NCBI GenBank assembly: GCA_008632985.1
Contig: QPGO01000069.1
Coordinates: 62,001-126,000, forward strand
Length of the DNA stretch: 64,000 nucleotides
From: Psammoneis japonica
Lineage: Eukaryota
Reading direction: 5' to 3'
A model generated the notes under the pieces. It made no database searches and was not told the DNA's origin. It was given only the letters and a program-made list of their open reading frames with translations. The position numbers and the translations under genes were made by a program. The first letter of the stretch is position 1; each line of letters begins with the position of its first letter. This document shows positions 14,652 through 60,999 of the stretch, one piece after another.

Positions 14652-15187
14652 ATTTTCGAATCAGACGTGCGCTGTCCTCTGATTGTGCGGTGAGATATAA
14701 AGCAGTTGCCAGTTGCAATGTGTAAAATGTGTTGTTGCTGTCGGTTACAGAGAGATGAAAAATGAAAAATCCAAAAATGCCGGTTTGGCCAAGTTTGGCC
14801 TTTTGTCTTCGAGAGTTTTCGCGCGCGGACGGACGCATGACGAACATCGTCTTGCTCTACATGCATGTTCTTCATCACTGAAGGCTATGAAATGGAAAAA
14901 TCGGAGTCGGAATATGTTATTCAACGTTTTAGGTTGGATTTAGATTTTTACTTATGACGGGGTGAAATTTCATGCACGTGGCGTAGATTCTACGTAAAAA
15001 ACAGCTGGCTCCGTTGAACTTGCAATTTGTCGTGACATGCAGCCAATCACAAACTCCGGAACCATAAAAAAAAGATCGCGCGACTCCGCCTACAAAAAGT
15101 ACGATTCGCGATGTGCTCACAATTTCCAACTGCTTCGCTTTTTACGCAATTGCAAGTTCTTTCTGACTGTCTTGCAAGTGATACTGC

Positions 15188-16633
15188 ATGATGTCAATAA
15201 TACGCAGCGGGAGTGCCATGATTATTGCTGTGGCGCTCTGTGCATTGAATCGCAATGTTGATGGGTTCGCAACAAATAGCAGAATGCCGTTTTTGCGAGC
15301 TAGTTCAATTCTTTCTCCAACGGATGCAACACACGCATATGTTCCATGGACTGTGTCTACCAGGTTGAATGTCGCCACGAGTACGCCTACAACCACTCAA
15401 AGCCTCAACCTTACAGATTTGCTGCCGTCACAGTTCCCTTTTCTTGAACAACCCGATGTTCTCTCAGAGCTTGATCTTTCGAGCCGGTACCCCAATCCTT
15501 GGAACATTGACTTTGTAGATGCAGAGGAGGTGACAACAAGCGACGACGAATTTGAAGAAGAAATGTCAGCAAATGACATGCCTCTCTTCGTGAACATGCT
15601 GCGCGGTTCGGGTAGTTACATTGCGGAGCACCTCGACCAGGTAGCAGTCTTTCACATTCCTGGAGAAATGATTGATACTAAAGGCTTCTCCAACCTGATG
15701 GACGACATTGCACTCTCTTGGTTGCTTGGAATCAAGATTGTCATAGTCCTTGGCAATCGGTTCAGCAGTGATGTCTGTCCCGCCTTTGATCATGGCCACG
15801 AATGCCAGAATTCGCTTCGCGTCCTGGACGAAGAGACGACTCACGCTCTGGAAGAAGACGCTGGATTCGTTCGTTTCGAGGTGGAGCGCCAACTGAATCG
15901 ACGTCTTCGTCTCAACAATGGACAGGCCGGATCCGATCGGAAAGATGCCCCAGCTCCCAATGGCAACGTCTTGAGTGGCAACTTTTATACCGCGAAACGC
16001 TATGGTAAAGTTCTTGGTGTCGACTACGAGTTCTCGGGTGTGCCCGACCGAGTCAATGCCGAGAAGATCAAACAAGCCCACAAGAAAAACGACGTGGTCC
16101 TTCTCACCACCGTCACCAACAGCCGTTCGGGTGAACTTGTCAACGTCAATGGCAATCACTTGGCGGCCTATGTTGCTGCAAGTCTTGGAGCATCCAAGCT
16201 GATTTACTTTTCGAACGAGAGCTTGGTTCTTGTTGACAAGGAGACAAACAAGCACATTCAAGACCTGCCTCTTAGTGTAGCAAAGTCGCTTGTCGACTAC
16301 TACAATGTCCACATACATCAGGCTGGCTTTGCTTCCTTTGAAGATGCTCAAGAGGTTCTCGACCCTCCCGCCGTTGAGAAGCTATTGCATCTCGGATGGA
16401 GTGGCTGGGCACTTGACAACGGGGTCAAGCGTGCTCACATTGTCGGCCCTAGCGATGGGGCACTCCTAGAGGAGCTCTTTAGTGCCAAGGAGGGTGCAAA
16501 CACTTGCATCATGCACGATGACGATGGAATAGAGGAAGAAGAAGAGACGATTGATTTCGAAGGGTTCCCCAACTTTGTGGAACCTGCTACCCGCGAGAGC
16601 TTTGCTCCAAGAGACGCACCGCCGTTTAGCTAA
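15188..16633 (+). CDS. NAGS-like amino-acid-kinase-domain protein lacking the GNAT domain; probable plastid presequence
   Basis: Aligns by eye with the AAK half of the NAGS at 5431-7347 (MDDIALSWLLG, AGFVRFEVERQL, GNVLSGNFY, GVKRAHI, GALLEELF). It then ends in an acidic tail. The N-terminus is signal-like (IIAVALCAL...DGF). Confidence 0.85.
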   Translation: MMSIIRSGSAMIIAVALCALNRNVDGFATNSRMPFLRASSILSPTDATHAYVPWTVSTRLNVATSTPTTTQSLNLTDLLPSQFPFLEQPDVLSELDLSSRYPNPWNIDFVDAEEVTTSDDEFEEEMSANDMPLFVNMLRGSGSYIAEHLDQVAVFHIPGEMIDTKGFSNLMDDIALSWLLGIKIVIVLGNRFSSDVCPAFDHGHECQNSLRVLDEETTHALEEDAGFVRFEVERQLNRRLRLNNGQAGSDRKDAPAPNGNVLSGNFYTAKRYGKVLGVDYEFSGVPDRVNAEKIKQAHKKNDVVLLTTVTNSRSGELVNVNGNHLAAYVAASLGASKLIYFSNESLVLVDKETNKHIQDLPLSVAKSLVDYYNVHIHQAGFASFEDAQEVLDPPAVEKLLHLGWSGWALDNGVKRAHIVGPSDGALLEELFSAKEGANTCIMHDDDGIEEEEETIDFEGFPNFVEPATRESFAPRDAPPFS

Positions 16634-17778: not shown

Positions 17779-19586
17779 ATGGCCAGAAGAATTATTACTC
17801 GACGTCCACTGACTGCTGCAACCATCTCAGGCGTTTCGACATGTTGCTTGTATGCACAGTACGTTGAATCGAGGACCAACCAACGAGATGCAGAGGTTCT
17901 TGCCGATCATTTTTCGTTGGGTACGACGGAAAGGTTTCCTGGTATGTTGCTCTTTCTCACTCCTCTCTAATCTATTCTCTTTTTCTTTATCCTTTCCCCC
18001 CTCAAACAGACTCTGGATTACCACGTCGCTACGACAGAGAGGCTTTGGAAAAATATTGGTCTGGCAGGCCAGTCAGCGTGGCAAAGCGATTTTTCACTGT
18101 AGCCAGTGAACTGGGACCGCGTCTTGGGGCCTATGTGTGGGATTATCAACTGTTTGCTCTCCCGCCCTTGGGAGCTCACGAGGAGTCTGCAAAACAGCGA
18201 CTCCATGCAGAGAAACTGCGAATTGCACTGACTAATTTAGGTCCAGCGTTTGTCAAGGCCGGTCAACAACTAAGTATTCGACCGGACCTTGTACCACCCG
18301 GCGTTTTGAAGGAGCTGCAAAAGTTGTGTGACGCCGTTGAACCAATCCCTGACTCCGTGGCCTGGAAGCTCATGAGAGAAGAGCTTCACTGCAATGATTT
18401 GTCGGAAATATTTGAAGACATGCACCTGGTTGCTTCGGCAAGCTTGGGACAAGTGTACAAGGCCAAGATCCGGGGAACGGGAGAAGAAGTTGCCATCAAG
18501 GTCCAGCGTCCGGATATGAAGCGAAGCGTTAGTCTCGATTTGTATCTTTTGCAAAAGTACGGTGCGTTCTTGGATGCATTTTGCACTACATTTACAAAAC
18601 AGCCGCCGTTTCACAAGGCCCTGTTTGACGATTTTTCCCGAGGCACCTATTCGGTAAGTTCTGCAGCATACCAAACGATGTGAAGTTGCTAGCACACTAA
18701 GAGTTGCTAACTTTCCTGCGCAACAATCGTTTCTTTGTCATACACAGGAACTCGATTACGAGAATGAAGCGGCTAACCAGTTGCGGTTCAAAACAGAACT
18801 AGCTCGACGCAAGTGCAAAGTCGTGATACCCTCCGTTTTCACGGAACTTACAACACAGCGTGTTCTAACAACAGAATGGATCAACGGAATGAAGTTGGCC
18901 GATGCGCCAAAAGAAACAATTCGTGAGCTGATCCCTGTGGGCGTGGAACTCTTCTTGACACAGCTCCTTGACATTGGTGCTTTTCACAGTGACCCTCACC
19001 CCGTAAGTTGACGAAACCAAGTTGTCGATCCTCGAATTATATACAATGACGCTTACTCGGTTTTTGTTTCTTTCAGGGGAACTTGTACGTTACGAATGAC
19101 AACACCCTCTGCCTTCTTGATTTTGGATTGTGCGCGGACGTGGAAGAAAGTGCTCGACGTGCCATGACAAAAGCAATTGTACATCTCTTGACAGGTGACT
19201 TTGACACGCTTGTATCCAGTGATGCAAAAGAGCTGGGCTTTCTCCCGCACGACTTAGACACCAAGGATCTTCAGCCCATTCTTACAAAAATTCTGACGGA
19301 TGGTCTGCTCGAATCTGGATCAAACCTGCACAATAGGAAGCGGAAACTGATGGAGATATCAAACGAGTTGAATGAAGTCTTCTTTCGGTACCCATTTAGT
19401 GTACCTCCCTTTTTTGCACTCGTTACACGTGGACTTGGTTTGTTGGAGGGCATCGCACTCAGTGGTGATCCTGACTTCGATATATTTCAGGCAAGTTATC
19501 CTTATGCGAGGCGTAGAGCAATAAGCCTCATGGGTGCTCGTGGCTTCAATCGCGTGATGAGATCACATACCAACAGCGGAACATGA
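17779..19586 (+). CDS. ABC1/UbiB-family atypical kinase; introns 17942-18009, 18654-18747, 19003-19076
   Basis: LGPAFVKAGQQLSIRPDL, VASASLGQVYKA, VAIKVQRP, ELDYENEA, FHSDPHP|GNL and LLDFGL. Canonical GT-AG introns restore a single frame. Confidence 0.93.
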
Positions 19587-19818
19587 AGAGTGCTTTATAC
19601 CTAGACTACATATTTTGTCTATCTAGAGAGTGAGTTGGAGTAAACTGGACAATCTCAGATCAGACACACGTTCCACCCACGATCCTGTTGGCGACCCAGA
19701 TACTTTCCATCGACGAACTGTCCTCCCATATCTGTCGCGGCATGTGGAAAAAACATAAGACAATTTTCCTTATTTGGAAGGATTCTCTCTACGGAATCTC
19801 CACGCTTCAATATGACGT

Positions 19819-20523
19819 CTATTCCGTTTCGGTAATATGAAGATTTGCGCGGACCTGTTGGGGTACTTCGAGTACTGTTTCAGTTTGGCCGCCAGGCCAA
19901 AGAAGCCTTGTCGCCTCCGAAATGGGAACATCTTTGTCTTGCAATGCTTGGGCGGCAGCTCGGAAATCTTCGGTAACGTCTGTAATTTTCTTGACTACCT
20001 GTGGGTCCAAGAGAATTTTGTTGGCGGGAGGTCGCAGTCCAATTTGAATGGACCGCTGCATCGGCAACGGCCGTGTAAGTACCTGGCCTTCTGAAGCATT
20101 CTTGTTCATGACACGCTCGGGGTCCCACTGCACAACGACACTGCTGTCACGACACTTGCGCTTATTCTTTCCGTTGTGTTCGCTGAGTACAGCCTGTTCC
20201 AACAATTCTTCGAACTTGGATCGGTCAATATCGATTGCCAAGACTCGAGATTGGTTCGAATCCTTCAGTACGGTCCAGCCGCATCGATACGCCATCCACA
20301 CCTTGCTTGGCTTGATCCACGTCATCCGATGGGTCGACCACAGGCCGGATTCGGCAGCGGGTTGAAACGACTGTGCTTTCACTACCAAGTCGGCAATATC
20401 ATTGTTGTAGGCTTGGTAAAGTCGTACCGTGTCATCCGTGTGGACGGCTCGGATCAATCGTGTCGTTGTTACACCGGTTTTTGTAGTCTGGGTATTGCTG
20501 CTGTGGTTCGTAGCTTTTCCCAT
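19819..20523 (-). CDS. DUF4291-family protein
   Basis: IRA...DTVRLYQAYN, RMTWIKPS, WMAYRCGW, VVVQWDPER and RSIQIGL motifs. Confidence 0.8.
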   Translation of the reverse strand: MGKATNHSSNTQTTKTGVTTTRLIRAVHTDDTVRLYQAYNNDIADLVVKAQSFQPAAESGLWSTHRMTWIKPSKVWMAYRCGWTVLKDSNQSRVLAIDIDRSKFEELLEQAVLSEHNGKNKRKCRDSSVVVQWDPERVMNKNASEGQVLTRPLPMQRSIQIGLRPPANKILLDPQVVKKITDVTEDFRAAAQALQDKDVPISEATRLLWPGGQTETVLEVPQQVRANLHITETE

Positions 20524-20770
20524 AGAGTTTGCCTTTCTACCTTTTAAAAACTAATAGAAGAACTCTTTGCAACCCTAGTTCTCTGTGACTCTGAGCCAAT
20601 GGCGAGGATCGAAAAAGAGGAAGTGGAATGAGAACTGGATGGTCGCTGAGATGGTAAGACGTGCTCGTATGATACGGTCGGTACGGTGGCGCTGCGAGAT
20701 GGTGAGACGTACCTTGAGTCGTGCCAAGCGCGACGCGCTTTGAGTCGTGGAGTATGATGGTGCGTTGGGC

Positions 20771-20895
20771 CCTCTCTATCTGCTCTTCTCCTCTAGAGAG
20801 AGAAGTAGCTAGAGAGTAGAGAGAGCTGCTAGTAGAGCTGCTAGCTACTAGAGAGTAGCTACTCTAAAGAGTAGAGTAGCTCTTGCTCTCTAGAG
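20771..20895. repeat. Low-complexity CTAG/TAGAG/CTCTA tract
   Basis: CTCTAGAGAGAGAAGTAGCTAGAGAGTAGAGAGAGCTGCTAGTAGAGCTGCTAGCTACTAGAGAGTAGCTACTCTA... Confidence 0.85.
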
Positions 20896-20919
20896 TGGCC
20901 AACTAACGAGTCTAATCAG

Positions 20920-22075
20920 AAAGGTGCCAAAATCGCGACATTCGAGTTTCAAAGAGCAGCCACACAAAAAACAAGAAACCTGTGAAAACTTGTGGCTTCT
21001 CTCCACAAACAAGTTGAGGGGAGTGCAATGGAGTGGTCCAAACACGTTGTTGTGTGAAATGTCCAAGTTTCCATCATCCGGGAGAGGGCTCAAGTTGGCA
21101 AGCCGACTTTGGCGATTTGTGTGGAAAACATGCTGAGCTCCACGTGTGCAGAATCTGGCTCACTTTTGTGCCCGCACCACCTCAATGACTGTGGAGTTGG
21201 TTTGGCAGGGTTTTACAACCTTGAAGTCATTGCATGCAAAGACCACTGAATCATGTGGTGTCCCAGCCACTTGCTTCAATCTTGAATCACGGCTCCAGTT
21301 TGACCAGAAAAAAATCGTGCAGCCAGACAAAACCAACACATGAAAACAAACCAAATCAACCCACAAAAGCTGCTCCAATTGTTGTTGAGTTCCAAGTGGA
21401 GCAAAAGTGCAAAATTGCCATGCAGCACTTCTTCCGGCAGATTGCTTCCACTGGGGTGTGACGCAAATCATGCTGCTGGACCGCAAGGACACATTGCCAA
21501 ATGAACCCAAAATGAAATGAAACAAATCAATTGTGCATGGAAATGGTTCACACAAAAGTCATTCCAACTGTCTTTGATGAGATCCAAGTCAAGCTGTTGT
21601 GCAGAGTTGACATGACGTGGTTCCACCCCACACTGCCTTGCTCGCTGCTCAAATGCCTTGTGCGTTTTTGGTGGGGGAAAGGTTTGGCAGCAAAATGGAG
21701 CATTGGTTGTTGCTGTGTAAGTTGTGAGAATCAAGTGAGAACAGCAGCAAAAACCAAAGGAAGGATTTTTTGTCCATTTTGGGGTTTCCCTCACCTCTCT
21801 TTTCATTGATGCACTTGTCAGAGAAAAATGCAGCATGTCACGCATGTTGGCAATTTTGGCAGGAAAAGGTCTGGCGGCAAAATCGAGCATCGGTTGAGCC
21901 TCACAGTGTTGATGATGTGTTGTTTTTGTTGTTGCGGCACTCGTTGCTCATTTGTGTCGAGGGAATCAAGAGGATTCTCCTCCTCAGGCGTCCTTGTCAA
22001 ATTTGTGCCAAAACGAACCTTTGCTTTTTCTGCTTTTTGCTTGTCCTCATCAAAATGGAAGTGCGTCTCATCAAA
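20920..22075. mobile_element. Decayed repeat/TE relic, TpA- and CpG-depleted (family not identifiable)
   Basis: Abrupt compositional switch with very few TA dinucleotides, excess TG/CA, no Tyr in any translated frame and no intact gene. Confidence 0.55.
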
Positions 22076-23107
22076 TTCTACAGAAGTTCCAGCATAAATC
22101 CCACACGTTTTATAGAGAGCTACCTACGTAGCTGGACGATTGCCGATTGTTCATAGATTTTTTAGGATAGTTGTTCACTCCTGCGGACGTCATGGGCCAT
22201 CACGCACGCACATCACGCAAATCTATTCAAACGGTTGCTTGCCATCCGGTCTGTACGTATGCCGTACAGTACGTATCGAATTTGTCTTCCGATATTTTGG
22301 AATTTTCGAGGCGGAGGAAACAGCAGGAAAACGAGAGCCTGTGGCCCGCCTGTTAGGGACCGGCTAAATGCGCTGTGCGCATTTTTGAGTTTTTGGGGCT
22401 CATTTTGCGCTAAATGCGCAAAAATGCGCTTGTACGTAGAAACGTACCAGGATTCTACGTGGTGTCACACCGAAACGTTGCAACCTGCTTGTGATGAGCT
22501 AGCAACTGCACAGAAGTAATTAGAAACAAGTGACAGCCATAAAACTCACTATTACATACATTTGCAGCTATTACCTACTCAAGCAAGTGATGGTCTTTGC
22601 CGTGCAGTCGTTCAAACATGAGGATCTCAAGAATCTCGTGCAGGGTCTGGCCACGGGCAATGGATTTGTGCGGTTACGGTTGGTGAAGCTCGAGGCAGCG
22701 CGCAGAACGCGCGCAGTTAGTGTTGGAGGGAGGCTGTGACGTCATCGATCAGTACTGTATCTACGCAGAAACACGTAGCCAGTTTCAGCGCATTTTTGTG
22801 CGCAAAACCTGGTTTCGACGAGCGCATTTAGCCGGTCCTTACCGCCTGTGGCCTGTGGCCTGTGGCTGCTTGACCATGATGGTCCTGTCCTGTCGTTACC
22901 CTGCTAGACCATTTCCAATCAACCTACGAGTAATCGGGTAGATTGCTCTTTGATACTCTCATAGAGAAGTGGTGGAGAGCCTGGAGGAAATCAGTTTGAA
23001 CGGTACCACAAGCTGCGACGCAGGACGCGCAAAGCATACCTACCTCACATCGTATTAGTGTTGGTACGGATTCAAAGCTTCTCAGCCTAGTCAGTGGTGG
23101 GATAGAA

Positions 23108-24725
23108 ATGGCTCTACCACCTACAAATTCTCGTACCTTCAATGAATTGAACTCTGTGGATGCCCCGGGTTACTTGGCGACCGACCATCCGTTGTATGAG
23201 CGAAAACCTGTCACGGATCTATGGAATAAATTGACAAACACGGCGGAACTGCAACTAAAGTGGAACGGCGTTGTGAATAAACGAGATGTGATTTGGCTTG
23301 GTCGAAAATCCCGTCTGCTGCAAATTAGCGGCCCACCCGGAAGCGGCAAGAGTAGTTCTGTCTACGCATGGGCACACAGAACATGCCGATCAAGTGGCTA
23401 CTCTGTTGCATGGATTGATGTTGCGAACAAGACAGCCGATAGTCGCTGTTGGTTATGAAACGCGGCGATAATCAGGCTGTCGAAATAGAGAGGGTAGCCC
23501 CGATCAAGTTGAGGCTTCGATTGTTATCCTCGACGGCTTGAGATCAGAAACGATTGGTGACTGGGAGAGGTATGCGAAGGACCTTTGTGAGACAGGTGTA
23601 GCGACGTTTCTCGTGTCGTCGGAAGGTGTTCGACTCCATGGAGGTAATATGAATAATATTGCGGGACTTCAATATCGCTTTCCGTCGTGGACAATGACAG
23701 AATATCAGCATGCTTGTCGAATCGATGCCATCTGGAGGAGCATTGCTTCCGACGCCTTTGGAGAAGGACGTATCGAGGACGGCCCTGCAGCAAGAGATGT
23801 AGCGCTGGAGAAAAAGTACCATTTAGCAGGCCACAGTGTGCGGTTCATGCTTAGCAGTAATACTTCGGCCGTCACAACAATTCTGCGCGAATCTAGCGAG
23901 GCGCTTGATACTCTCACGAGTTTACGTCAAGCGTTGATTCGCCGTCGGAATAGGCGAGCCGTCAACACATTGATGGCATGGCTGTACAAAAATGGTCCGA
24001 CGCCTAATTACACAGCCAGATTCCTGGACGGAGTCGTTCCGGCGGCAACGAACAAAGATGAGCTCAGAGTCGTAGATCAAGAATATCAGAACATTCCCGA
24101 CTCCGAAGATGAAAACCGTCTCGTCAGCTCCTTTGCTGCAAAACAAATTATCGAGAATATTGAAACAAATGTGACTGTTCTCAGAACAGCCGGAAGAACG
24201 CTGGGCGTTCGAGTAGTGGAAGGATATGCCTTGGAGGCAAGCTTCTCAAAATCTTTACGAGATGCGGTCGGTGGGACTCGTTCCTTCACAGTATATGGCG
24301 CGGAAGGAAAGGGGGAGCAATGGAGTGCAGCATATTTGCGTAACACAGACAACGTCCTAGACGCCATTGTCGCAAACCATAACATTGGTTCGTGGATCTG
24401 GATTGGAAAGAACCAAGCTGGGTTTGATGCTGTGCACATTTATGACGCGAGAAAGATCCGTTTTGTCCAAGTGACTGCCGGAAAGAAGCACGATTATCTG
24501 TTTTCTGCAATTCAGAGTCTGCTTGCAGTGCTCGCATCGCAGGACATTACTTTTACTCATGTTGACTTCGTTGTAGTCAGACCCTTAGACGACGATCGTG
24601 ACTTCTCTAAAGGCGAAGTAACTGGGAGGCTTGATCAGGGATGGAAGGATTTCTCTGGTAATTTGTGGAATACGAGAGATCCATCTCTAAATACACGTAT
24701 ATTGAAAATTGATTGGTCCATTTAA
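23108..24725 (+). CDS. Crinkler/RHS-type P-loop NTPase + C-terminal PD-(D/E)XK-like nuclease; apparent frameshifts at ~23455 and ~23500; true start uncertain
   Basis: Walker A ISGPPGSGKSS, Walker B IVILDG (after frame correction), FPSWT..EY..AC, KYHLAGHSVRFM, GYALEA.F and nuclease-like NQAGFDAV...RFVQVT.GKKH. Confidence 0.65.
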
Positions 24726-25121
24726 AGTTTTTTCTGTTCCATGCGCATGGAACATTTGGCATTGTATTGGGAGTTTGTTCATGGCAACAGTCAGAGTTTG
24801 TGCACGAGCTTTCCTCTGCATTTTATACATGATGAGTACAGCTGTGGATGAGATGGGATTTATGAAGACCCTGGGTGCTCAATTGGCATATTATATTAGT
24901 GGCTATTTGGGTTACCGTTCACACCCTGCTGATCGTAATCAAGGCAGCAGCCAAACGTTCGCGCGCTGTTTCTGGCGCACTGTAGATTTTAGTGCGAATT
25001 CTACTCTGAACTCTAGGATTCAGCTTGGCCGAACCACACTTTCAATCGTCCATATTTTCATCAAAAAGAGGAGCATCACAATGAAAAAGAAGATTCAAAC
25101 TGTCACAAGTGCCTGCGGGGG

Positions 25122-25262
25122 AGGTCAAAGTGCAATTTTGAAATTTTGAAACTCATGGCGCAAGATGAACACACCTTTGCACCAAATCAGAAAATGCAAC
25201 ATGTTGGTCATTTTTAGACAATGGCATCTTCGGACACGGGGGTCGAAATTGCACTTTGATCT
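25122..25262. repeat. Short inverted repeat pair (~20 bp arms)
   Basis: AGGTCAAAGTGCAATTTTGA (~25122-25141) versus TCGAAATTGCACTTTGATCT (~25243-25262; reverse complement AGATCAAAGTGCAATTTCGA). Confidence 0.7.
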
Positions 25263-27679
25263 GCTCTTGTGATCTTTAGATGATGCATGATTTCCTGGGT
25301 CTTACGAAGGGACATCATCATCCATCACCTGTGAGTCATGTTCCGCTTCTACAGTCCCGGGAATCTGTTCAAGAATTTCTGCGGGATTCACCGAACCACA
25401 CATGGAATTGTTGTCGCCAGTCAGTTTTGGTTGTGCCTGAGCACCTTGATTTTGTGCATTTTCTACACAACCTTGTCTGGTGGCATCAATTTGTGCATCC
25501 CCGTTTGAGTCCTGTGTGGAAAGATCCAACATGTTGCTGCTGCCTTGAGGTCATCTTGCACCTGTGCTTCTTTCTGTCACTGGGGTTGGATTTGTCACAA
25601 GTGGTGGAATGAACATTGACAGGTTTGTTTTGCTTGAAGGGGTTGAGGGACAAGACAGGAAAAGAGAGTGTGCCATGCTGAAGATGACAGCAGCACAAAA
25701 GTTTGCTTGGGACCACTTTGTTGCACATTTTTTGGCTTGTGTGCACTGCATTGCACACATGTTTAGAAACACAAAGGACAAGAACCCGCTTCTCTGCGGC
25801 TTTACAAGCTTCACAAAGGTTCATGTCAGAGCACTCAATTGAGCTCCAATTTGATTTTCACAAAGAGCAACTGTGTCACAAATGACTTGAACTGGGGACA
25901 ATGATTCTGTCACACAGCTTTTCATGGCTTTCCAAATGTCATCAGGAGGCTGAATGTGTTGAGTCCTGGTGTTGGAATGAGTCATTCTGGTGGGGTTGTG
26001 AAATTTTTTCCATTGTTTTAGAGCAACTTCTTTTGCAGCACAAGGCCATGGCAAAACAAGAAGTTTGCTGCAGACCGTCACGTGGTGTTGTCATCACATG
26101 GTTTGGCCACTGTCTCAAATTGGTTTCAAAGCTTGGCAGTCTTCCTTGTGGTCTTGGCCCAGCAGGCTCCTCCTGTGACCAGCAAAAAAGCCATTGTTTG
26201 GGTGCTTGCTGCACAGATTTGTCTGTTCTGCAACATCCATTGTGAGTTTGTGTGGAGCTGCCCAGCTGGTTTGGTGTCAGGTCCTGGTGTGTTCTGCAAC
26301 ATCCGCTGCGAGGTTGTGGAGTTGCCCAGCTGGTTCGTCAGGTCCTTGTGTGACATGCCTTGGCTCAGACAAGCCCCCGGACCCCAGCCCAGTGGTGATC
26401 AGCTTCCACTCACCCAATCAAATGGTCCTCATCAACCTGACGCTGCCAGCGCACATCACAAACTTGTCGCAGGTTGGTGTTGCAGCGGGCTTCATGCTGG
26501 TGTGAGTGGTGCAGGGAGAAAGTTGAAGCTGCCAACCCCTGCTGGCAGCTGCCATGCAGCATGGCATCTGTTTTGTGGTGCACAGGTGATCTTCTCAGCA
26601 GTTTTGGACATGGCCAAGGGGCTTGCAGGTGCAGCGCACACCCCCTGGCATGCATGTGTGCATTTGCAAAGTTGCGCAAACCAAACAAATGAACTTGTTG
26701 TGATGCTTGAAGTTTTGCCAACAGCATTGTTTGTCATTCTTGACACAAACAACCAAGGAAAACACTGACGCCATTTTGTGTGTGGCAGAAATGTGCAGGC
26801 ATTTCATGCTGTGGCTGTGCTTGGCACAAAACAATGACGGCATCAACAGCACCTGCTGCGTTGAGGACAGGAAGAACAGCATCATGCGCGCCAGTGGACC
26901 AGAGTGCAGGGGTGGTGCTGGCATTCCCGGTGGCATCTGTGGGAGGCAGTGGAGCATGGGGGGAAAAGTGTGTGTTTGCAGCATCAGTTGTGGATGTTGT
27001 GGGCACAAGACAATGACAGTGACAACAGAGTCTGTTGCGCTGAGGGCATGAGTGACAGCATTGGGCACGCCAGTTGAAAGAAACACAGGGACAGCACTGG
27101 CATCTTTGACAGTGTCTGTGGGAGGCAGTGGAGCATGGAAACAACAGCGTCAGTTTGTGGCATCTTGCTTTGCATGTGTCAGGCTGTTCAGAACAGAAGC
27201 GATGACATTGCCTGTTGCATCAGTGTTGTTTGTGACAGTGTTGGCAGGAACGGTGTCCTGGGAAAACATTGGAAAAGAATTGTGAGGCATCATCATGGTC
27301 GATCTGATGTGATGGGTGCTTTTTTCATGGCTGCAAGAAAGGTCAAAAAGTGTCTTTATTTGGGGTTGGTTCCAGGCAACTTGAGATTTAGGGGAGAACA
27401 TGGTTCAGGATTTTTCCTGTTGCCATTGGCATTTGTGCACAAATGCAAAATTCTCAGTGATGTGACGACACAAAAAAAAATTCATGACATGAACATTGCA
27501 TCGCCATGACATCAACACCATGTTCTCCACATGCAAAGAGGTGTCTTAAGAACAGACCTTTTTTGGTGGAAGATGTGCAGACAAAAATCACTGTTTGTGT
27601 GATGGCACCAACTGTTTTTCTGTTTTTTTTTTCAACACTGTCATCGCACATTGTCGAGGTGCAGTTGCTGAAGTCCTGA

Positions 27680-28449
27680 GACCCTGTCCAAACTGGACCA
27701 TGCCCACATGCATGCCTGATGTCATGGAGCCAAAAATGAGCCTCTTTGAAAAAGTCCGTGGTTGTTGGCCCTGTGCATGACATGATTTGGGCCGTGCATG
27801 CTTTGGTGAGGAAGGCTCCTTGAAAACATCATGCCCCAAACACCATGCCCCCCAAGTTGACACACGAGATGACCCAGAAGTGGCTTTTTAGATGCAACAA
27901 AAGTGCACATGGCTGCATCTTGTCCCCCCAGAACAACCCACAAACCTTCTGACACATGAAGCACTTGCTGTGTTTGGGGCACTTCATGCGCCATTCTTGT
28001 CTCATCATGATGCAGCATCTTTCCTGAACATTCTCTCAATCAATCCATGGCAGACACTCCTCATGCAGCAAAGTTGTTCACACATGAGTTGTGCACAAGT
28101 TTAACGCTGTGATTGATTTTCATCATTTGCTTGGCTTGTTGTCACCTTGCAGCTGTGTTCTCATCATCATGGTGGCACTGCTCTCATTGTGTGTTTTTTT
28201 GTTCTGTTTCATTCCAGCTTCATTGATGCAGCTGGCTTGGCACCCTGCTTGAATGATCAGCCTGCATCAGTGACAAAATGTGTGAAGTTGGGTTTGCACT
28301 GTGTGTTTGTGTGTGGATGAAGTGGGGACATGCGCAAAAGTGTGTGATGCAGTTTGGAAAGCACTGCACATGTGTGACCCTGTGATGTCTGAAAAAAGGC
28401 TTTGCAATGTCAGGCATGCACATGGGTGTGGTCCAGTTTGGACAGGGTC
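27680..28449. mobile_element. Non-autonomous TIR element (PIF/Harbinger/Tourist-like MITE), ~770 bp
   Basis: Terminal inverted repeats of ~45 bp begin GACCCTGTCCAAACTGGACCA at both ends. The flanks TGA (27677-27679) and CAA (28450-28452) can both derive from a TAA target-site duplication. Confidence 0.7.
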
Positions 28450-28673
28450 CAATGTTCTCTGAGCAGCCCCACAGGAATCCACGGGCTTCCACCACTGGTG
28501 CCCATGCCCCCAAACAGGCCAGAGACATTTTGCCATCTGAGTTTTGGGAAACACAGTGTTTCATTTGATGCAGCAGGCTTTCTTTGAAGCTGCATTGCTG
28601 GATCCTCTGTCTTGTGTTTGAAGGTTCCAAATGCTTTTGTTGCATCTTTTTCAATGAAGGTGCTGACATTCAA

Positions 28674-28674
<1 letters not shown>

Positions 28675-28706
<32 letters not shown>

Positions 28707-28707
28707 C
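28675..28707. repeat. (AAC)n microsatellite
   Basis: About 11 perfect AAC units. Confidence 0.95.
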
Positions 28708-29083
28708 CATGAGCAGTGCCAAAAGTGCTGATCCTTCCATGGGCTTAAAGTGAGTTGTCATGTGCCATGCTGCAGTCAGCATCAAGTGCAGTTGGCAGTC
28801 AATGTGTGCCACTTGCAAGCTTGTTTTTCCTTGCTGTTGTTTCTTCTTCACACTTGCATCCTTGCACAGCAGCATGGATCTCGTCATTGACAGCCAGCTC
28901 CATGAGTGAGGAGAGTCCCTTTGACAAGGCCATGCGTGCCAATCTGCATGAAGGCAACATTGTCTGTGCACAGGGTGAGTGCATGTGGCTTCACATTCAT
29001 TTGATTCATCCCTTGATTCAATCCATGTCCTCCACCTGCACTGCTGACATGACCATTCCAACTCATTCATTGGGTCAAATCAG

Positions 29084-29456
29084 NNNNNNNNNNNNNNNNN
29101 NNNNNNNNNNNNNNNNNNNNNNNNNNNNNNNNNNNNNNNNNNNNNNNNNNNNNNNNNNNNNNNNNNNNNNNNNNNNNNNNNNNNNNNNNNNNNNNNNNNN
29201 NNNNNNNNNNNNNNNNNNNNNNNNNNNNNNNNNNNNNNNNNNNNNNNNNNNNNNNNNNNNNNNNNNNNNNNNNNNNNNNNNNNNNNNNNNNNNNNNNNNN
29301 NNNNNNNNNNNNNNNNNNNNNNNNNNNNNNNNNNNNNNNNNNNNNNNNNNNNNNNNNNNNNNNNNNNNNNNNNNNNNNNNNNNNNNNNNNNNNNNNNNNN
29401 NNNNNNNNNNNNNNNNNNNNNNNNNNNNNNNNNNNNNNNNNNNNNNNNNNNNNNNN
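29084..29456. other. Assembly gap (N run)
   Basis: Run of Ns. Confidence 1.
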
Positions 29457-30026
29457 TCAGATCCATTCTCACCACTGAGGGATGGGAAGATTGCAAGAAA
29501 TCAGCACGCATGCCAAATGCCAAGGTTCAAAAGCAATTGAGGCATTGAGCAATTGAGGCATTGTGCACCCAAGGTGCATGAAGCAGCCTTTGTCTTGCTC
29601 ACCTTTGCTCAGCAGGACATGTTTGGTGACAAGCAACTGGCTGGACTCACAGAGCACACACGCTGGCTCTTTCTGTCTCTCAAGAGAATCTGCAGCATGT
29701 GTGTGCCCAAGCCAGAGCATTTGCCAGAACTTCATGAAACCCTTGATGACGCTGATGCCACATTTGCTGGGAGCTGCTGAGCAAGGTCATTTTGGATTAG
29801 AGCTTCCCTGGGACATGACGCTTCTTTGTTTTTTTGTGTGCAGCCACAGCACCTGGCCACTGTGGCTGCTTCTGCCAGCATGAAGTTGCTCCCAGCCAGG
29901 CCACTGGCAGGTTGCTCCTGCTGGTGGCTTGAGATGATCACACATCACAGCAGTTGCCAGGCCCCAGCTGCAGAAACCCAAGCAACAGATGGCGCTGAGC
30001 AGGGACATTGGCACGGAAGAAGATTG

Positions 30027-30490
30027 CACTTGGGGTGTGTTTTGACTGATCGCTCGTTGTCATCCCTTTGTGCTGTGGTGGTGTCAATTCACTCTCAAGA
30101 GCCAGAGAAATGCAATGCAGGCACAACTCTGTTCCAATCAATGATGTCATGCATGCACATTTCACCAGTTCCCAAAATCTCTCTGCCACACATTGTGGCA
30201 CCCCAGCACCACTCCCCTGTCACTCAATTTTTTGCTCTTTCCTTTTCTCCAAAAATGCAATCAAGGCAATGGCATTGAAGAATGTCTCACTTGGGGTGTG
30301 ACATGACTGATTCCTTTGCTTGGTGGTGTCTTTTTGTCCTGGCATCAGTTCACACCCAAGAGCTGGAGAAATGCACTGCAGGTGCAAACACACTTTGATC
30401 CATGATGTCGTGTGTGCTCATTTTACCTTGTCAACAAATCTCTCTGCCAAAGATTGTGGTGCCTCAAGAACAGCACTCCCCTCTCATCCA
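30027..30490. repeat. Diverged ~260 bp tandem duplication inside the TE block
   Basis: CACTTGGGGTGTG...TGACTGAT...CAAGAGC..GAGAAATGCA.TGCAGG...ATGATGTC...AAATCTCTCTGCCA...CACTCCCCT at ~30027 and ~30288. Confidence 0.8.
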
Positions 30491-31397
30491 AGTTTGTTCC
30501 ATGTCATTGTCACTGTCACTGTCTTGAGTCAATGTGCCTGAAAAAGTCCTTTGGCATCACTGGCGCCACAATGACCCCAAATTGAAAGTCTTGCTTGTGG
30601 CTCCCACAAACTTTCTTGTGAATCTTGTCAGCCTCGTGTGCCAGGATGGGTGTGGATTTCACTGCTTGACAAACACAAATCAACAAGGTGGCAATGTTTT
30701 GAGTGGCCTCGTCCTGCTCCTGTGTTTGCAGGATGCCAACAGCAGCAGGGTTGGTGTTGTCTTCAGTCTCATGCTCCACTTCTTTTTCTGATTTCTTCTT
30801 TTTCAGTTCTTGCTTGTGCACTTGCAATTGCTTCTGGCTGGGCTTCCTTCCACAGATGCTTTTCCTCATCCAACACCACCAGTTCCACCATGCTGAGACT
30901 CAATCCCTCCTGCCTGGTGGCACAATTCAGCTCATGCAGCTGCTTGGTTCTGAGCAGACACTGTTGCTTTTGCTTCTCCTTTTTCTTGAAACAATGCTTG
31001 GCTGCTTCTTGTTTTTCCAATTGCTTTTGTTCTTCAAGTTGTCTCTCTGCATGACAGTCTCATGCTCGAGACACATGTCTCTTGCACTTGCTGAGCACCT
31101 GCCACCATGGCTTGATGAGCAGAAACTCAACATGGGCTGCCTCAACAGCCTTGGTCTTGCCTTTGTTGTCAGCAGAATTCCACTGCAGCTTGGCTTGAAG
31201 CTGTTTGAGTGCCTGCACATGATGAGACCAAGCCACCGTGGCAAGCACACTTGTCCCAACAACAACAAAGAACTGTTCCAACCATCCAATTGATTTTGTG
31301 TTTGTCAACATCATCTTGAAAAGTGTCCTTGCACAATGCTTGGACTGGAGCCTTGGATGGAACCTTGGCTTCAATGGGGCATTCTACAAGTGGTCGT

Positions 31398-31423
31398 GCA
31401 GCAGCAGCAGCAGCAGCAGCAGC
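31398..31423. repeat. (GCA)n microsatellite
   Basis: About 8-9 GCA units. Confidence 0.9.
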
Positions 31424-32294
31424 AAGCAGTGGGCAGTGCAGATGTTTTGGGATGCTTTTTGAGAGTTGACATGGGTGACTGCAACTGCAGCAACATCAAG
31501 GAAATTGGATGCTTCCTCAACAGTGTGCGAGTTGCAAAAAAAAACATTGCAATGTCAGCAGTGTGAGCCAGGGCATCATTGTCATTGTGGCTGACTCTGA
31601 TGTTTTGTGGCTTGTTTTTGCCTGAAGTGCCAATGCCACCACAGTCAATGGCCCATCAGTCATCTGCCAAAAAAGGTCCATGGAAGTGACATGCAAGCAA
31701 TGGAGGATGATGCAAAGCAGGTGTCCCTGATGGAGGTGTGCCAATTTTTCCACGACCACTGGCCATTGGACAAAGTGAGAGCCAGCTGGTTCTAACAGCA
31801 TTGTTGGTCACTTCAGGGGAAAATCAGAAGGTGTCCTAATCTCCCGCGCAAGTTTCTTACATTGGGTGTCCAGTGAAAGCTTGGTGGGGCTGATGAAGTT
31901 CCACCAACTTTTAAAAGTGAACGCTTGTTGTGATGTCTGAGCTCAAAGTCATTTTGATGTGAGAGTGGTGCATTGTAGAATCTTTTTTTGAGCAATGGCA
32001 TTGCCCTTGAAGGGAATCCTTGTTGTGATGTCTTCACCAAAAGTCATTTTGACCTGAGAATGACCATGCACAGAACCTTCCTTTAAGCAATGTGTTTTGT
32101 CACTTGACAAACCAACAAAACTTCCTTGAGCAAAAAAGCCCAATGAAGGGATTGTGTGAACCTGCTCAGTGGCACACAAGTCATGGATTTGTGTGGAGCG
32201 CATGTGTGTGATGTTCAAATTGTTGTGTTCCTGAGATGTGCGTGCAAACAACTTGAGCCTTCTCATTGTTGGAGTTGTGGATGTCAATCATCTG

Positions 32295-32625
32295 TTGTTT
32301 TAAAGTTGTCCCAAGATCTGCTGGCTCAGGCATCAAGCCAGCTTCATTGCCACTTTGGTGGTTCAGGACTGCAGTCACCCTGAGCTCTTGCCTCTGAGTG
32401 TGGTCCATTGTGAAAACTGGTCAAAAACAACTGCAAAACATGCTCTGGTTGTTGGAGTCACTGTCTTGCTTTTGGATTGCAAAGCATTGCAAGTTTGGTC
32501 TCTTGTTCTAAAGTTGTCCCAAGAGCTGCTGGCTTGGCATCAGGCCAGCTTCTTCATTGGCACTTCTCAGTGGTTTTTGCTGCAGTCATGCTGAGTTGTT
32601 GCCTTTGAGTGAAGTCCATTGCCAA
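32295..32625. repeat. Diverged direct repeat (~115 bp, ~210 bp spacing)
   Basis: AAAGTTGTCCCAAGA.CTGCTGGCT..GGCATCA.GCCAGCTTC...CTGCAGTCA..CTGAG...GTCCATTG at ~32302 and ~32510. Confidence 0.8.
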
Positions 32626-34269
32626 GCTGGTCAGAGACAACAGCAAGACTTCAAACAGTTTCAAAAATGGGGCTTGGCACTCCATGACTTGGCGATGCTC
32701 CACCTCCTCAATTTCCGTCAGAACAAGAATGACCAGATTTGGTGATTCAAGAAAACAAAGGCACCACTCAAGTTCAAACCCAAGGACATCAAGCAACATG
32801 GATTTCTCTTGAAAAAGCAGAAGATGGGGTCTGTTGTGACACTGGAGGCAGCAGGAGCAAGGACTTGTTTTTGTCAAGACATGGACAAATGAACCGCACA
32901 GCTAAAATCCTCATTCTCATCATGGGAAGCTTGACAAAGTGGCAAAAGAACAAGGTGTTTGTGTTGCCAGAGCAAAAGAGATGTGTGTCTGCCCCAGCAG
33001 TTTAGTGTGCAATGACCATGAAAACAATTTTTGGCACAATTGTTTCGCACCCCCCATTTGTCCAAGCTGGCATGAAGGATGTGGTTGACAACATGTTGAA
33101 GAAGTCTCATTTGGAAGATGCTGGTCATGGTCGATGAGGCAGTGTGCTGCTGCGCAAATGGCAAACATGCTTTGCAAAACACATGGTCAAGTGAAGATGG
33201 AGCAACAGAACCTCAGGTCAAAAGGGGCTCATTGGGCAGAAGCAGCACATGGAAAATGATGTGTTGCATGTCTGACATGCTTTGCAATTGAGCAAGAGAG
33301 CTGCTGCTCCCGGATGAGATGAGGTGCCATTTGCTGTGGACAAACAGTGGTCACTGAGTCCACACACAAACACATGGCAAATCCAGGGTTGTTGCAGGAA
33401 AAATCTGCAGATGACAACAACCTTGATCCTGATCCCCAGTTGTGCCCACTGATCAAGGTTGTTGGTGTGTGACCAACACAGGTTGACATGTTGTCTTTCA
33501 TTGACATCAACAAGCACCAGCACACAAATCCTGTTTCATCTCTGGGAAAATCGGTGTCTTTGGGATGTCATGGAAAGTGTCTCAAGTTGAGCTCTGTCTC
33601 AAGTTGAGCTCTGGGTGCACACCATGGGTGCCATTGCCAACAGCTGCTTCTTTGGTGCCTTGTGCACTGCTGCACTGGCTTGTCAAAGAACCAAATGACA
33701 TGTGACCAACAAAATGTTGCACCACACCTGTTGGCTCAAACTTGTGCCACTTTCAACTTTCAACTCCCGAGCTGGGGTGCCAATCTGGAAAACAACTTGT
33801 GGAGCATTCAAGTGAAGTGCAAAAAGAGCAAAAAGTTGATTCCCCGGTCAATTTTCCATGTCAGCTGAACTCAATTTCACTGCAGTCTCTCCAAACAAAT
33901 TGCAGCCACTAGATGGATGCACAGCCAACAATGGTGAGGCAGATTTTGTTGGTGGAGTGCATGGAGCTGGCCCTCCCTTTGGCAACATTGCTGCCAGAGC
34001 ATTGGGTTGAGGGTCAACAATCCCTGCCAGCTGCCAAGGAAAATGACCAGGCAAGGATCAGCAGCTGCACCTGGAAGATCTTAAAATTCACCTGTGCCCA
34101 ACAACTTTGCTTCCCCACATTCTTTCACATTCATGACGTGATGTCTGGCCATCTTAACTTTAATCTGCATCTTCATTCACGTTTGTCCCTTCCTTTTTTC
34201 CATCATCCACCATCGCATCCACTGCCCCCCCTCCTCTTTCCCTCCACACATCTGAGAGACCGCGCCCTC

Positions 34270-34480
34270 TATCTCGACGCCAGACCTGCTGTACTCTACT
34301 TCTACTCTACTAGCAGGCCTACCTACCAGGCCAGGCCAGGCCAGGCCAGGCCAGGCATTCGACTCACTCATACAGTACGTTCTAGCTAGAATCATCCCTG
34401 TTCTAGCTACTAGAGTAGAGAGAGAATGCCTTAGCTATTGTTGTTCACTCTAGAGCTCCAAAATTCATTTATCTAGAGAA
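34270..34480. repeat. CTAC/TAGAG low-complexity tract with (CCAGG)n array
   Basis: CTCTACTTCTACTCTACTAG, about six CCAGG units at ~34326-34355, and CTAGCTACTAGAGTAGAGAGAG. Confidence 0.8.
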
Positions 34481-34483
34481 TTA

Positions 34484-36082
34484 TTATCTCGTTGGAAGTT
34501 GCAACAAGACGGGTCCCAGAGCTAGAGCAATGGCCGTTGCCGTTGCGTATCCCAGAATTCCAATCAAGAGGGCCGGAAGAACGAGTCGCGGCCATTCTTT
34601 TGCTTGCGCCATTGCCGCCGCTGTCGTTGGACCGCCGACATTTGCATTCGATGCCAGGTACAAGTCACGGGGGTCTAGTCGAAGCAGCCCTCGTCCTAGT
34701 GTCATGAGGGTTGCAAAGTGAACTCCAATCTGCATTGCAGAAAATGCAAATAGTGATGGTGCTGATTTGATCACGAGCTTGATGGAACCAGCGGCACCGG
34801 ATGCCGCAAAGAACATTTGAATAAAAATGATACCCAAGGCTGTGCCAGCTGCTCGAATTCTAGAAAAGAATCGGGGAAAGGTTGTTGCTGATAGCACTGT
34901 AAGGATGGACGTCAGTGGGAGCGAGGAAGTCCCTGTTGGTAGAATGAGCTTGGTGAGAACGCCGCCTAACGTAACCAAACAAGACGCGACGGTGATAGAC
35001 GCCCCCAAGGTTGCCAACGAAATGGAGCTGGATCCCTCTGTTTCTGCGTCCAGGTCCTCGGGGTCGGTAGGCATGTCCTCTGACGCAGTGTCTGTCTTTT
35101 TGGAACCAAAATTGTAATCATCCTCGCCCGTCTTGGCAATCGAGAACAAAAAGGCAAAGTACAGAGCGACAACAATGTTGTCAGCTGCAATTGCAGCAGA
35201 TACAGCGCTCCCTGCCACATTGAGTGTATCTGCCACCGCAACAAAGTTGATAGCACCGCCTATGTGCCTTGCTGCAAGAGCACAAGCAACTCGCCAGCCA
35301 TCAGGACCCAAGGATTTCAACGGGATCAAGGGAAACGCAACGAGGGTACCCACAATTGTTGCTATTGCTCCAACAACGAAAGCAATTAGTAATGACCCGG
35401 TATCAGCAAAGATCCGTCGTAAATCAGAATCGAATAGGAGCATGGGAACAGCCAGTGGAACCAAGAACTTGTTCACCATCGAATCTGTTATGTGTGGAGT
35501 AGACGCGAGACGATGAGATTCACACCATGTAACAATGTGGAGGCGATTGCTAGCAAGAAATAGTCCAACTCACAGATTGGCGAAGAAAAAGGCATAAAAC
35601 CTAGATTGGCAACTGTCAAAGCAAGAGCCATAGTTGCGAGCGGCGCCTACTGAACCAGAAAGAAGGATGTAAGTTCCACATCTGTGGACGGCGAAAAACC
35701 TTGCCAGCAATACTACAGTAATACTCACTGAAAGGGCTTTTCCCAGAGTAGTGCGGCGTTCCAGAGCAACGCCAAATGTTGACGTTAGCAGCACACAACT
35801 CAGAACAAAGGTTGGGTCGCTGTGAAGAAAATCCCTTGCATTCACCACTGATGAAATCATGCTGGATCCAGTGGGAACAGCTTCGAGGGAGGTATTGGAT
35901 CGACCTTTTATTCTCGCGCTTTGAGAAACAGCATTGTTCATTGGAAAAATTGTGTTCATTTTCGTAAAGGGTAAGAGTGATGGCTTTAACCTCGGTGCGG
36001 TGGATACCACAAAACCATGCACCGGAAGCAACAGTTTCAGAAAGATGATGCCGACGCATCTTGTTTGAGACTTGAAACGCAT
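34484..36082 (-). CDS. DUF819 (YjcL-like) multi-pass membrane protein, probably plastid-targeted; introns 35647-35728 and 35485-35573
   Basis: GKALS|APLATM, LVPLAVPMLLFDSDL, HIGGAINFVAV and ASNANVGGPTTAAAMA. N-terminal signal ends VHGF. GT-AG introns restore the frame. Confidence 0.88.
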
Positions 36083-36454
36083 TCTAGTTTCTTCGGTTTC
36101 CTTCCAAATTGTGAAAACCTTCAAAGGACGATCGAGTGGCAACCAATGGAGGTATTAGATTGTTCCTCTCATGTGGATTGTGGCCTTTAAGCACGGTGGA
36201 AGCTGTCAAAGGCCGACAGCAAACGGCAGAAAAGATGAATGAGGGATGAGGGCAACGAAGAACGAAGATGCCGATGCCAATCGCGATCGCGCCCGCCCGG
36301 TGACACCACGTACAACAATCATGGTACGATTTCTACATACAGAGCATGTACTGCGCTTTGCTCGTGAGTGCGTGTCGAAATTTTTGCGGAAACAAACCAC
36401 AACACAGCGAAGCACGGCGTGTTCCTGTTTGTTCACTCTTCTTGTATTGGCATC

Positions 36455-36947
36455 ATGTTGTCCCGAGCATCGTCAACGCTGTTGCGTTCCTCAGCAGGAG
36501 GAATGCTTCGAATGAAAATGGCGTCTAGATTGCAGATGACGGCACAACGCACCATGGCTGCAGGAGGGTGAGTTTTGGGAATGTCCGAGAAAGCTAAAAA
36601 ATTCGCATTGAGAACCGCGATTTCTCACTCACTTTTTTCTTCACAGCATTTCGAGGCAAACCCATGCCAACCTTGGAACGGCGTTTGGCTTTGTTTGCTG
36701 GATGTGGATCTTTTATAGAGCACAGCATGACTTGCCGGTGGTGTTGGGATGGAGGCACCCGTGGGAGCACGGTCCCGACGAAGGTCATCTCGTTCCGGTT
36801 GCCAACGAGGAGGAGCTAAATGAGGAATGGGATAGCTTTTACAGCAAGTCCGTCAAGCCAGGCGAAGATGATGATGATGAGGAAGATGAGGACGAAGATG
36901 AGACGAAGAGGAAGAGGATGACGAGTAAAAACATTTCATCAGTTTAG
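36455..36947 (+). CDS. NDUFB2: Mitochondrial complex I subunit NDUFB2 (AGGG)-like; intron 36568-36646; acidic tail, end uncertain (probable indel ~36900)
   Basis: Mitochondrial presequence MLSRASSTLLRS. After splicing it reads CWMWIFYRAQHDLPVVLGWRHPWEH, matching the plant/algal NDUFB2 motif. Confidence 0.8.
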
Positions 36948-54555: not shown

Positions 54556-54898
54556 GTTGGTTTATGCGTAATTTCTACACATAAATACCTGATATACATA
54601 TAGAGTACCAAAATACTACCAAATTACATAGTAACGGCCGTTAACGGTTTTTAGAATTACTTAGGGCCACCCACACTCGAGCAGTGGGAGTCCGGGAGTT
54701 CGGATACTGTACTCGCCTTGTTTGCTGTGAGCTGTGATGACCGAATTTGAGAATTCCAGAATGCTAAAGTGGACGAGCCGACGAGGCGGGTTGAACAATG
54801 GCCAAGAACGACCCACAGCTTGTCGTGTGGCCTTCTCGTCGGGCTACGTACCGGTAGTTGTTGTTGCTGGGAATAAGGCCCAAAGCAAAGTAGGAACC

Positions 54899-60884: not shown

Positions 60885-60999
60885 TCGTGCTTGTCCATAA
60901 ATTAGTAGTACACGAATCTGTAGTTTTACTGTAGCACCGGCTCCGCATACGGTCAGCCATAGGAATGCTTCTAATTGACAAAGAATCTGCTGCACATGT

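Follow-up and report, generated by a model that had tools for sequence, protein, structure and literature searches.

How can several kilobases of chromosomal DNA lose one dinucleotide almost completely while genes a few hundred base pairs away keep it? The question is raised by a window of 64,000 nucleotides of eukaryotic DNA (contig QPGO01000069.1 of assembly GCA_008632985.1, positions 62,001 to 126,000 of the forward strand; "the window" means this whole stretch, and positions are counted from its first letter), in which four blocks, here called deserts, are nearly devoid of the step TpA. Desert 1 (20914-22078) holds 2 TA and 27 CG compared to 85 and 61 expected, desert 2 (25015-34154) 30 TA and 86 CG compared to 599 and 497, desert 3 (50052-54562) 7 TA and 25 CG compared to 283 and 280, and desert 4 (60973-64000, cut by the end of the window) 13 TA and 49 CG compared to 198 and 181. 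Only the last was assigned a strand, the minus strand. Borders were set from the last or first TpA and expected counts were derived from base composition; for the four blocks combined, 52 TpA are observed for about 1165 expected. We argue that this pattern is probably due to an A:T>G:C hypermutation at TpA that acted in place, at the DNA level and within inserted sequences only, accompanied by a methylation-type decay of CpG.

The depletion is deep and its limits are abrupt. In 500-bp sliding windows, the TpA odds ratio ranges from 0.00 to 0.16 within the blocks and from 0.23 to 1.04 elsewhere. Over the blocks as drawn by a first-pass annotation, which had been made by eye from the letters, the odds ratios are 0.05 for TA, 0.18 for CG, 1.85 for CA and 1.80 for TG, versus 0.57, 0.97, 1.15 and 1.15, respectively, in the remainder of the window, with a base composition nearly equal in both compartments. 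The deserts and the excess of TG and CA described by this annotation are therefore real. The four blocks contain the 22 longest stretches of the window without any TA (300-1451 bp), whereas such stretches outside measure 26 bp on average and 291 bp at most. Across the blocks, rho(TpA) varies from 0.01 to 0.13 and rho(CpG) from 0.06 to 0.48. The step at the borders is sharp, since flanking stretches of 260-470 bp exhibit observed/expected TA ratios of 0.68-1.13; as had been claimed, the depletion switches on or off over about 100 bp. In its left 1 kb, desert 2 is slightly less saturated (8 TA). The insulation of neighbouring genes is tight. Desert 3 starts about 170 bp past an open reading frame (ORF, 48912-49880) and stops about 170 bp before another (54731-56383), and genes located 170-400 bp from deserts are unaffected.

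Such a composition modifies the apparent coding content of the blocks. In six-frame translation, tyrosine codons represent 0.06% of the blocks versus 2.13% elsewhere, and the stops TAA and TAG together 0.24% versus 1.68%, while ORFs of at least 80 amino acids reach 6.5 per kb versus 3.8 per kb. Both the near-absence of tyrosine and the warning about spurious ORFs, already formulated by eye, hold when counted. Deserts that have lost their TAA and TAG stops are full of false ORFs, and gene callers need to mask such blocks.

TpA is not the only step that is lost. CpG is also depleted in the four blocks (187 observed versus about 1019 expected) and normal outside them, a co-located loss that the first-pass annotation had missed, together with the direction of the change and the published precedent discussed below. 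The sum of the four pyrimidine-purine (YpR) dinucleotides is nevertheless almost the same in the blocks (0.2417 of steps) and outside (0.2376): TA and CG drop by 0.0805 and TG and CA climb by 0.0847, with unchanged base composition. This match between deficit and gain is what would be expected if TA and CG had each become TG or CA by single transitions, with little else occurring.

The direction of both changes can be observed directly in desert 4, a minus-strand Ty1/copia retrotransposon represented by its 3' part (Pfam RVT_2, 1.3e-16). Its reverse transcriptase (RT)-RNase H frame (62687-64000, minus strand) spans 438 codons with no tyrosine and no frameshift, and bears TGA stops at arginine columns. 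By tblastn, 11 of 14 homologous polyproteins align to it as one unbroken segment, either 62687-64000 or 62687-63940. The alignment used for comparison comprised 13 of the 14 homologues (P0014, with 25% identity, was left out) and 298 conserved columns, a conserved tyrosine column being one with tyrosine in at least 70% of the homologues. None of the 13 conserved tyrosines is kept; six are now His (CAY), four Cys (TGY), and one each Trp, Arg and Ile. Where the consensus of the homologues has YVDD, this copy has HIDD and has lost the tyrosine, and no tyrosine is left in the 438 codons of a protein that contains 2.5-4.0% of it in the 14 homologues. Other conserved residues are kept in 204 of 268 cases, and 4 of the 17 conserved arginine codons are now TGA. 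Among the 88 mismatches in the conserved columns, 43 fit a loss of TA or CG, 2 go in the reverse direction and 43 fit neither; CG>TG and CG>CA replacements, including CGA>TGA stops, are present in the frame. The loss of tyrosine and the 43-to-2 asymmetry of replacements indicate that TA>TG/CA and CG>TG/CA changes struck a once-normal element.

Could this composition simply be a habit of copia elements, or follow from CpG decay? No close relative of the desert 4 copia RT was found in metagenome contigs. A profile search of such contigs provided 80 control loci with related, distant copia RTs, for which rho(TpA) lies between 0.47 and 0.90 (median 0.63) and rho(CA+TG) does not exceed 1.41. The copia part of desert 4 exhibits a rho(TpA) of 0.07, a rho(CA+TG) of 1.66 and a rho(CpG) of 0.43. 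Among control loci, rho(CpG) falls as low as 0.14, and the set with this value retains a rho(TpA) of 0.56. Since CpG-decayed controls keep their TpA, the loss of TpA is neither a trait of the copia family nor a by-product of CpG decay. As a separate observation, many of these environmental loci (L020, L036, L024, L053 and others) combine a rho(CpG) of 0.14-0.35 and about 38-40% GC with normal TpA, indicating that methylation-type decay of this copia lineage is common in other organisms.

The two strands of the blocks are affected alike. On the sense strand of the RT gene, TA>CA is about as frequent as TA>TG among single-step replacements. Along the blocks, TG and CA follow each other in random order (runs-test z from -1.6 to +0.7 over five segments, desert 2 being split at its assembly gap), whereas two of three stretches taken as controls from outside the blocks present strand runs (z of -3.6 and -4.0). 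Strands that are directly seen to be balanced and free of tracts argue for a site-by-site action on duplex chromosomal DNA and against the editing of RNA or single-stranded complementary DNA (cDNA).

The few TpAs that survived are informative on the preferred target. When the 52 surviving TpAs are read on both strands, a purine follows on the 3' side in 84 of the 104 readings, for a share of 44% elsewhere in the window and of 47% among the 80 copia loci. In the blocks, 33 of 52 TpAs have the context YTAR, versus 302 of 1757 in the remaining DNA (Fisher p = 4e-13). Relative to the density outside, RTAY survives at 0.5%, mixed contexts at 4.9% and YTAR at 28%. These values are near a product rule, which points to independent hits on the two strands, T-A-pyrimidine being hit about four times faster than T-A-purine; the observed bias thus implies that T-A-pyrimidine is the preferred target. 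Alternatively, the surviving TpAs might have been newly created, but a purine bias of this kind is not predicted from the bases next to TG and CA in the blocks.

The nature of the inserts is clearest for desert 4. Desert 1 is a 1.17-kb intergenic insert, desert 2 a 9.1-kb composite between two genes, partly multi-copy, and desert 3 a 4.5-kb insert, and none of the three could be assigned to an element class. In a Pfam scan of 113 block ORFs of at least 80 amino acids, RVT_2 was the sole match, DUF7042 remaining below threshold (E 0.0012, 19.3 bits for a cut-off of 27). Six-frame read-through with stops as X, applied to desert 3 and to positions 29457-34150 of desert 2, identified no Pfam family (E<=0.1 for desert 3); for desert 1 and positions 25030-29083, the Pfam search covered ORFs of at least 80 amino acids. 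Long terminal repeat (LTR) pairs, terminal inverted repeats (TIRs) and target-site duplications were sought at the block ends and none was found. Self-BLAST gave eight local pairs, none of them between blocks.

Additional information came from contigs of public sequencing runs aligned over positions 19500-36500. The summed contig depth in desert 2 varies from about 60, corresponding to single copy, to 1035 in parts, and parts of desert 2 as well as the edge of desert 1 are covered 2-20 times more than their single-copy flanks. Moreover, 258 of the 459 contigs of run X1 placed on this region are only 90-95% alike. Over-coverage by such contigs indicates dispersed repeats within deserts 1 and 2. 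As regards the origin of the targets, desert 4 is a Ty1/copia element; in deserts 1-3, no domain was recognised and only parts are multi-copy. No contig joining across a whole block, as expected from an empty site, was seen among contigs over 19500-36500. Desert 2 also contains an assembly gap (a run of N, 29084-29456), where a contig of run X1 joins 29079 to 29457.

The first-pass annotation had listed an LTR retrotransposon, a TIR-bearing miniature inverted-repeat transposable element (MITE) and unidentified DNA among the deserts, and had proposed that the signature follows a chromatin domain rather than one family. The conclusion that no single element family accounts for it stands, because the blocks are mutually dissimilar and one of them is a Ty1/copia remnant. 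The MITE has to be withdrawn: no terminal inverted repeats occur at desert ends, and the sole TIR element found, a MITE-like sequence between deserts 1 and 2 (22354-22841, arms of 21 nt that are 95% complementary), lies outside the deserts. Its TpA and CpG contents are normal (25 TA versus 31.7 expected, 35 CG versus 32.5). The chromatin-domain reading is supported in part, by the unrelatedness of the sequences and by the sharp borders, a chromatin domain itself being a candidate for what the signature follows.

The same contigs indicate how far the letters of the deserts can be trusted. Contigs of run X1 at single-copy depth agree with the deserts apart from 1-8 differences per 600-1600 nt, which makes a pure assembly artefact unlikely. 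Differences between run X1 and the window comprise 95 transitions and 27 transversions; among the 40 differences listed, 7 are TA<>CA/TG, 14 CG<>TG/CA, 11 other transitions and 8 transversions. Contigs at single-copy depth diverge from the window by about 0.5% in desert 2 and about 0.16% in its flanks, both values being based on small numbers. Three TA>CA differences are located just outside blocks, at 22168, 22293 and 24723. At 23497, in single-copy DNA, the G of the window is replaced in both runs by A with an additional C, reflecting a small assembly error or a strain difference.

Taken as a mechanism, the four blocks would be insertions of repeat or foreign DNA, one of them a copia retrotransposon and three untyped, on which two context-specific transition processes would have acted after insertion without leaving the inserts. 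The first, A:T>G:C at TpA, would yield TpG or CpA according to which strand's adenine is hit, and would have run to near exhaustion. The second, C:G>T:A at CpG, would be the usual decay footprint of 5-methylcytosine (5mC) in silenced elements. For the first process, we infer an enzymatic deamination of adenine to hypoxanthine on DNA, for which an ADAT2/TadA-like deaminase is a reasonable candidate. The natural tRNA substrate of ADAT2/TadA is U33-A34 followed by C (C35) in tRNA-Arg. In a review, an engineered editor, TadA-8e A48E, is described as favouring 'YAC' (PMC13109818). The deaminase might be recruited by a silencing signal that also brings cytosine methylation, and the net effect would be a genome defence that destroys tyrosine codons, with CpG decay adding TGA stops.

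Several points weigh against this scheme or against parts of it. The restriction of both changes to the inserts is observed, while the deaminase and the targeting signal are deduced. Neither an LTR pair nor a target-site duplication nor an empty site was identified, so that mutation in place is probable rather than proven relative to mutation before integration. Blocks 1-3, marked as repeats by over-coverage of parts alone, are putative transposons or viruses. The context preference presumes that the inserts started with TA contexts similar to those now seen in the flanks or in other copia elements. The contigs of the public runs and the assembly may derive from a single sample, in which case they would not be fully independent. 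The untouched TIR element is multi-copy (bin depth of 674 versus about 58 in single-copy flanks, i.e., about ten-fold), so that copy number alone is not the trigger; this element may have escaped because it is too small (about 0.5 kb), too recent or marked in another way. Finally, the ratio of TA loss to CG loss, measured as -ln survival, differs among blocks from 1.5 to 4.6, and desert 1 combines the deepest TA loss with the mildest CG loss. The two processes are thus not strictly coupled, and TpA loss and CpG decay appear partly independent, a common recruiter of both being a supposition. The bolder proposal that both losses stem from one silencing system marking the two self-complementary YpR steps of invading DNA is doubtful.

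Other explanations differ in the step at which the TpAs would have disappeared. In silenced DNA, TpA might carry a base modification that is symmetric and heritable, such as N6-methyladenine (6mA), 5-hydroxymethyluracil or a base-J-like oxidised thymine, whose mispairing or decay would convert TA to TG or CA with no dedicated deaminase. Such a modification would account for the loss of TpA and CpG, the two YpR steps that are self-complementary, from the very same blocks, for the independent hits on the two strands and for borders as sharp as those of a methylation domain, but it agrees poorly with a TA/CG loss ratio varying from 1.5 to 4.6 between blocks and with 80 copia loci in which strong CpG decay occurs without TpA loss. 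No TpA mark of this kind is known to us, and eukaryotic 6mA is reported at ApT and in active genes; we consider this explanation rather improbable. Alternatively, the mutations would precede integration, the elements being edited as RNA, by an ADAR-like conversion of adenosine to inosine, or as cDNA, and inserted already mutated. Sharp borders would then coincide with element ends, one block is indeed a retroelement, and ADAR prefers a 5' U according to the preprint discussed below (bioRxiv 10.64898/2026.01.13.699255). Editing of this type should however strike one strand, whereas TA>CA and TA>TG are balanced on the RT sense strand and TG and CA are randomly interleaved. Besides, TpA loss comes with CpG decay, no retroelement feature was recognised in three blocks, and a copy deprived of every conserved tyrosine, including that of YVDD, would be incapable of autonomous replication, all of which makes pre-integration editing very unlikely.

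Two further possibilities concern an intrinsic or selected composition and an artefact. Joint suppression of CpG and UpA with an excess of TpG and CpA is a signature of many RNA viruses, and inserts could come from a donor, or have evolved, with a similar avoidance of TA and CG. An intrinsic or selected composition should nevertheless not destroy conserved catalytic residues or create in-frame TGA stops, and the depletion exceeds that of every one of the 80 relatives by a factor of about ten and extends to non-coding DNA and to both strands; this origin is hard to credit. The least credible of all is a sequencing or assembly artefact caused by miscalled modified bases. It could be invoked because a few single-copy sites (e.g., 23497) read differently in the window and in both runs, but separately assembled public-run contigs reproduce the desert sequence at single-copy depth, and miscalls differing between strands would not yield a clean TG-or-CA outcome devoid of residual TA or CG. 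The same type of mutation was also measured by short reads in Bigelowiella natans, as described in the preprint considered next. In-place hypermutation at TpA therefore remains the explanation that we retain for the comparison with known systems.

A:T>G:C hypermutation at TpA in chromosomal DNA has a single precedent that we found, a 2026 preprint on this chlorarachniophyte, and a literature search retrieved no other report of TpA-directed mutation of repeats. The mutation rate of two integrated viral regions, followed in mutation-accumulation lines of B. natans, exceeds that of the remaining genome about 1000-fold, and 230 of 231 mutations in these regions are A>G or T>C, all of these being stated to occur at TpA (Mettrop et al., bioRxiv 10.64898/2026.01.13.699255). 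The B. natans genome, of which the callable part represents 85 Mb or 90%, harbors 124 TpA-poor and CA+TG-rich clusters, reverse-transcriptase and DDE domains are over-represented among its TpA-depleted coding sequences, and an ADAT2-like DNA adenine deaminase was proposed (bioRxiv 10.64898/2026.01.13.699255). When the cluster criteria of that study are applied to the window, 17 of its 64 1-kb windows qualify and form three clusters of at least three windows; 22 of 64 (34%) lie under the 5% TpA cut-off of the same study.

Both cases share changes of TpA to TpG or CpA only, confined to particular regions and targeting non-host DNA, an origin that is putative for deserts 1-3. They also differ in several respects. 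The deserts are saturated (rho 0.01-0.13), whereas the region derived from a nucleocytoplasmic large DNA virus (NCLDV) in B. natans has a rho of 0.45 and the virophage region is TpA-rich. The typed target in the window is a copia element, compared to integrated NCLDV and virophage DNA. CpG is co-depleted in the window, whereas the term 'CpG' occurs 0 times in the main text of the preprint, and the 3' pyrimidine preference seen here carries no mention for B. natans in the text that we could consult. Three clusters are present in 64 kb versus 124 in the B. natans genome, and the exons of the window are long and unbroken, 1.6-2.4 kb being common. The window shows the same kind of process as B. 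natans, at saturation in transposon DNA and probably in a different organism that is poor in introns.

Better-known systems each account for one part of the footprint. Repeat-induced point mutation (RIP) likewise represents a DNA-level, transition-only and dinucleotide-specific mutation of repeats that ruins genes and stops sharply at the limits of the repeat. In fungi, RIP converts C to T mainly at CpA and enriches TpA, whereas the blocks have odds ratios of 0.05 for TpA, 1.85 for CpA and 1.80 for TpG, the mutated base being adenine (or thymine). Classical RIP was rejected, the sign of the TpA change being opposite. Decay of 5mC resembles the CpG half of the footprint, with the matching gain of TpG and CpA, the restriction to inserts and the CGA>TGA stops, but it cannot account for TpA loss, as relatives with a rho(CpG) of 0.14 retain a rho(TpA) of 0.56. 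APOBEC and ADAR also perform deaminase-driven hypermutation of selfish elements, with a 5' U favoured by ADAR; on the contrary, they leave one-strand, strand-biased tracts, while the blocks present even strands and no tracts.

The deserts are embedded in gene-dense eukaryotic DNA, with long ORFs matching Pfam families such as H+-PPase, DUF819, mitochondrial carrier, ankyrin and EF-hand, and with canonical GT-AG introns of 82-89 bp. The protein cluster closest to the DUF819 product consists mostly of Chlorophyta, whereas clusters of HSP70-like proteins are taxonomically mixed, too little to point to a lineage. In the DUF819 gene (34497-35941, minus strand), a contig of run X2 skips 35485-35573 and 35646-35727, i.e., 89 and 82 bp, at GT-AG borders, so that this run, recorded as 'DNA?', appears to be cDNA; its coverage of the blocks is almost nil, which is not taken as evidence. 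Close to the deserts, an exact 13-mer, CTAGCTACTAGAG, is found at 20841-20853, 60 bp left of desert 1, and at 34403-34415, about 250 bp right of desert 2, both in TA-rich and CTAG-rich intergenic DNA. Allowing up to two mismatches, it has three matches compared to a shuffle mean of 0.39; the bin 20634-21200 is covered about 24-fold, and the sequence may be a common intergenic motif or a small repeat. A short intergenic (GGCCA)n microsatellite lies right of desert 2 (34325-34355), where reads are apparently cut. Further away, two ORFs with an amino-acid kinase domain are found 8 kb apart on opposite strands (5431-7416, minus, and 15182-16633, plus), the former with an additional GNAT acetyltransferase domain, as in a fusion of N-acetylglutamate synthase/kinase type. 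About three tandem copies of a unit of about 190 bp, with 75-95% identity, are located at 59354-59795 within a 431-amino-acid ORF (59143-60438) that has no Pfam family.

What the window adds is an end point, in which about 97% of the TpAs have disappeared, every conserved tyrosine codon of a reverse transcriptase was destroyed and nearby genes were spared. It also offers new points that can be tested, namely the preference for T-A-pyrimidine, the independent hits on both strands and the co-location with CpG decay. If the doubtful one-system proposal were true, a heritable modification or a dual A/C deaminase complex would be aimed at TpA in 5mC domains, TpA would carry an epigenetic mark analogous to CpG methylation, of which the footprint would be the mutational shadow, and such a system would exist beyond chlorarachniophytes. 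Under the hypermutation that we favour, if the organism is not a Bigelowiella, adenine-directed genome defence would be wider than one lineage, and fungal RIP would then have a counterpart based on the other purine-pyrimidine chemistry.

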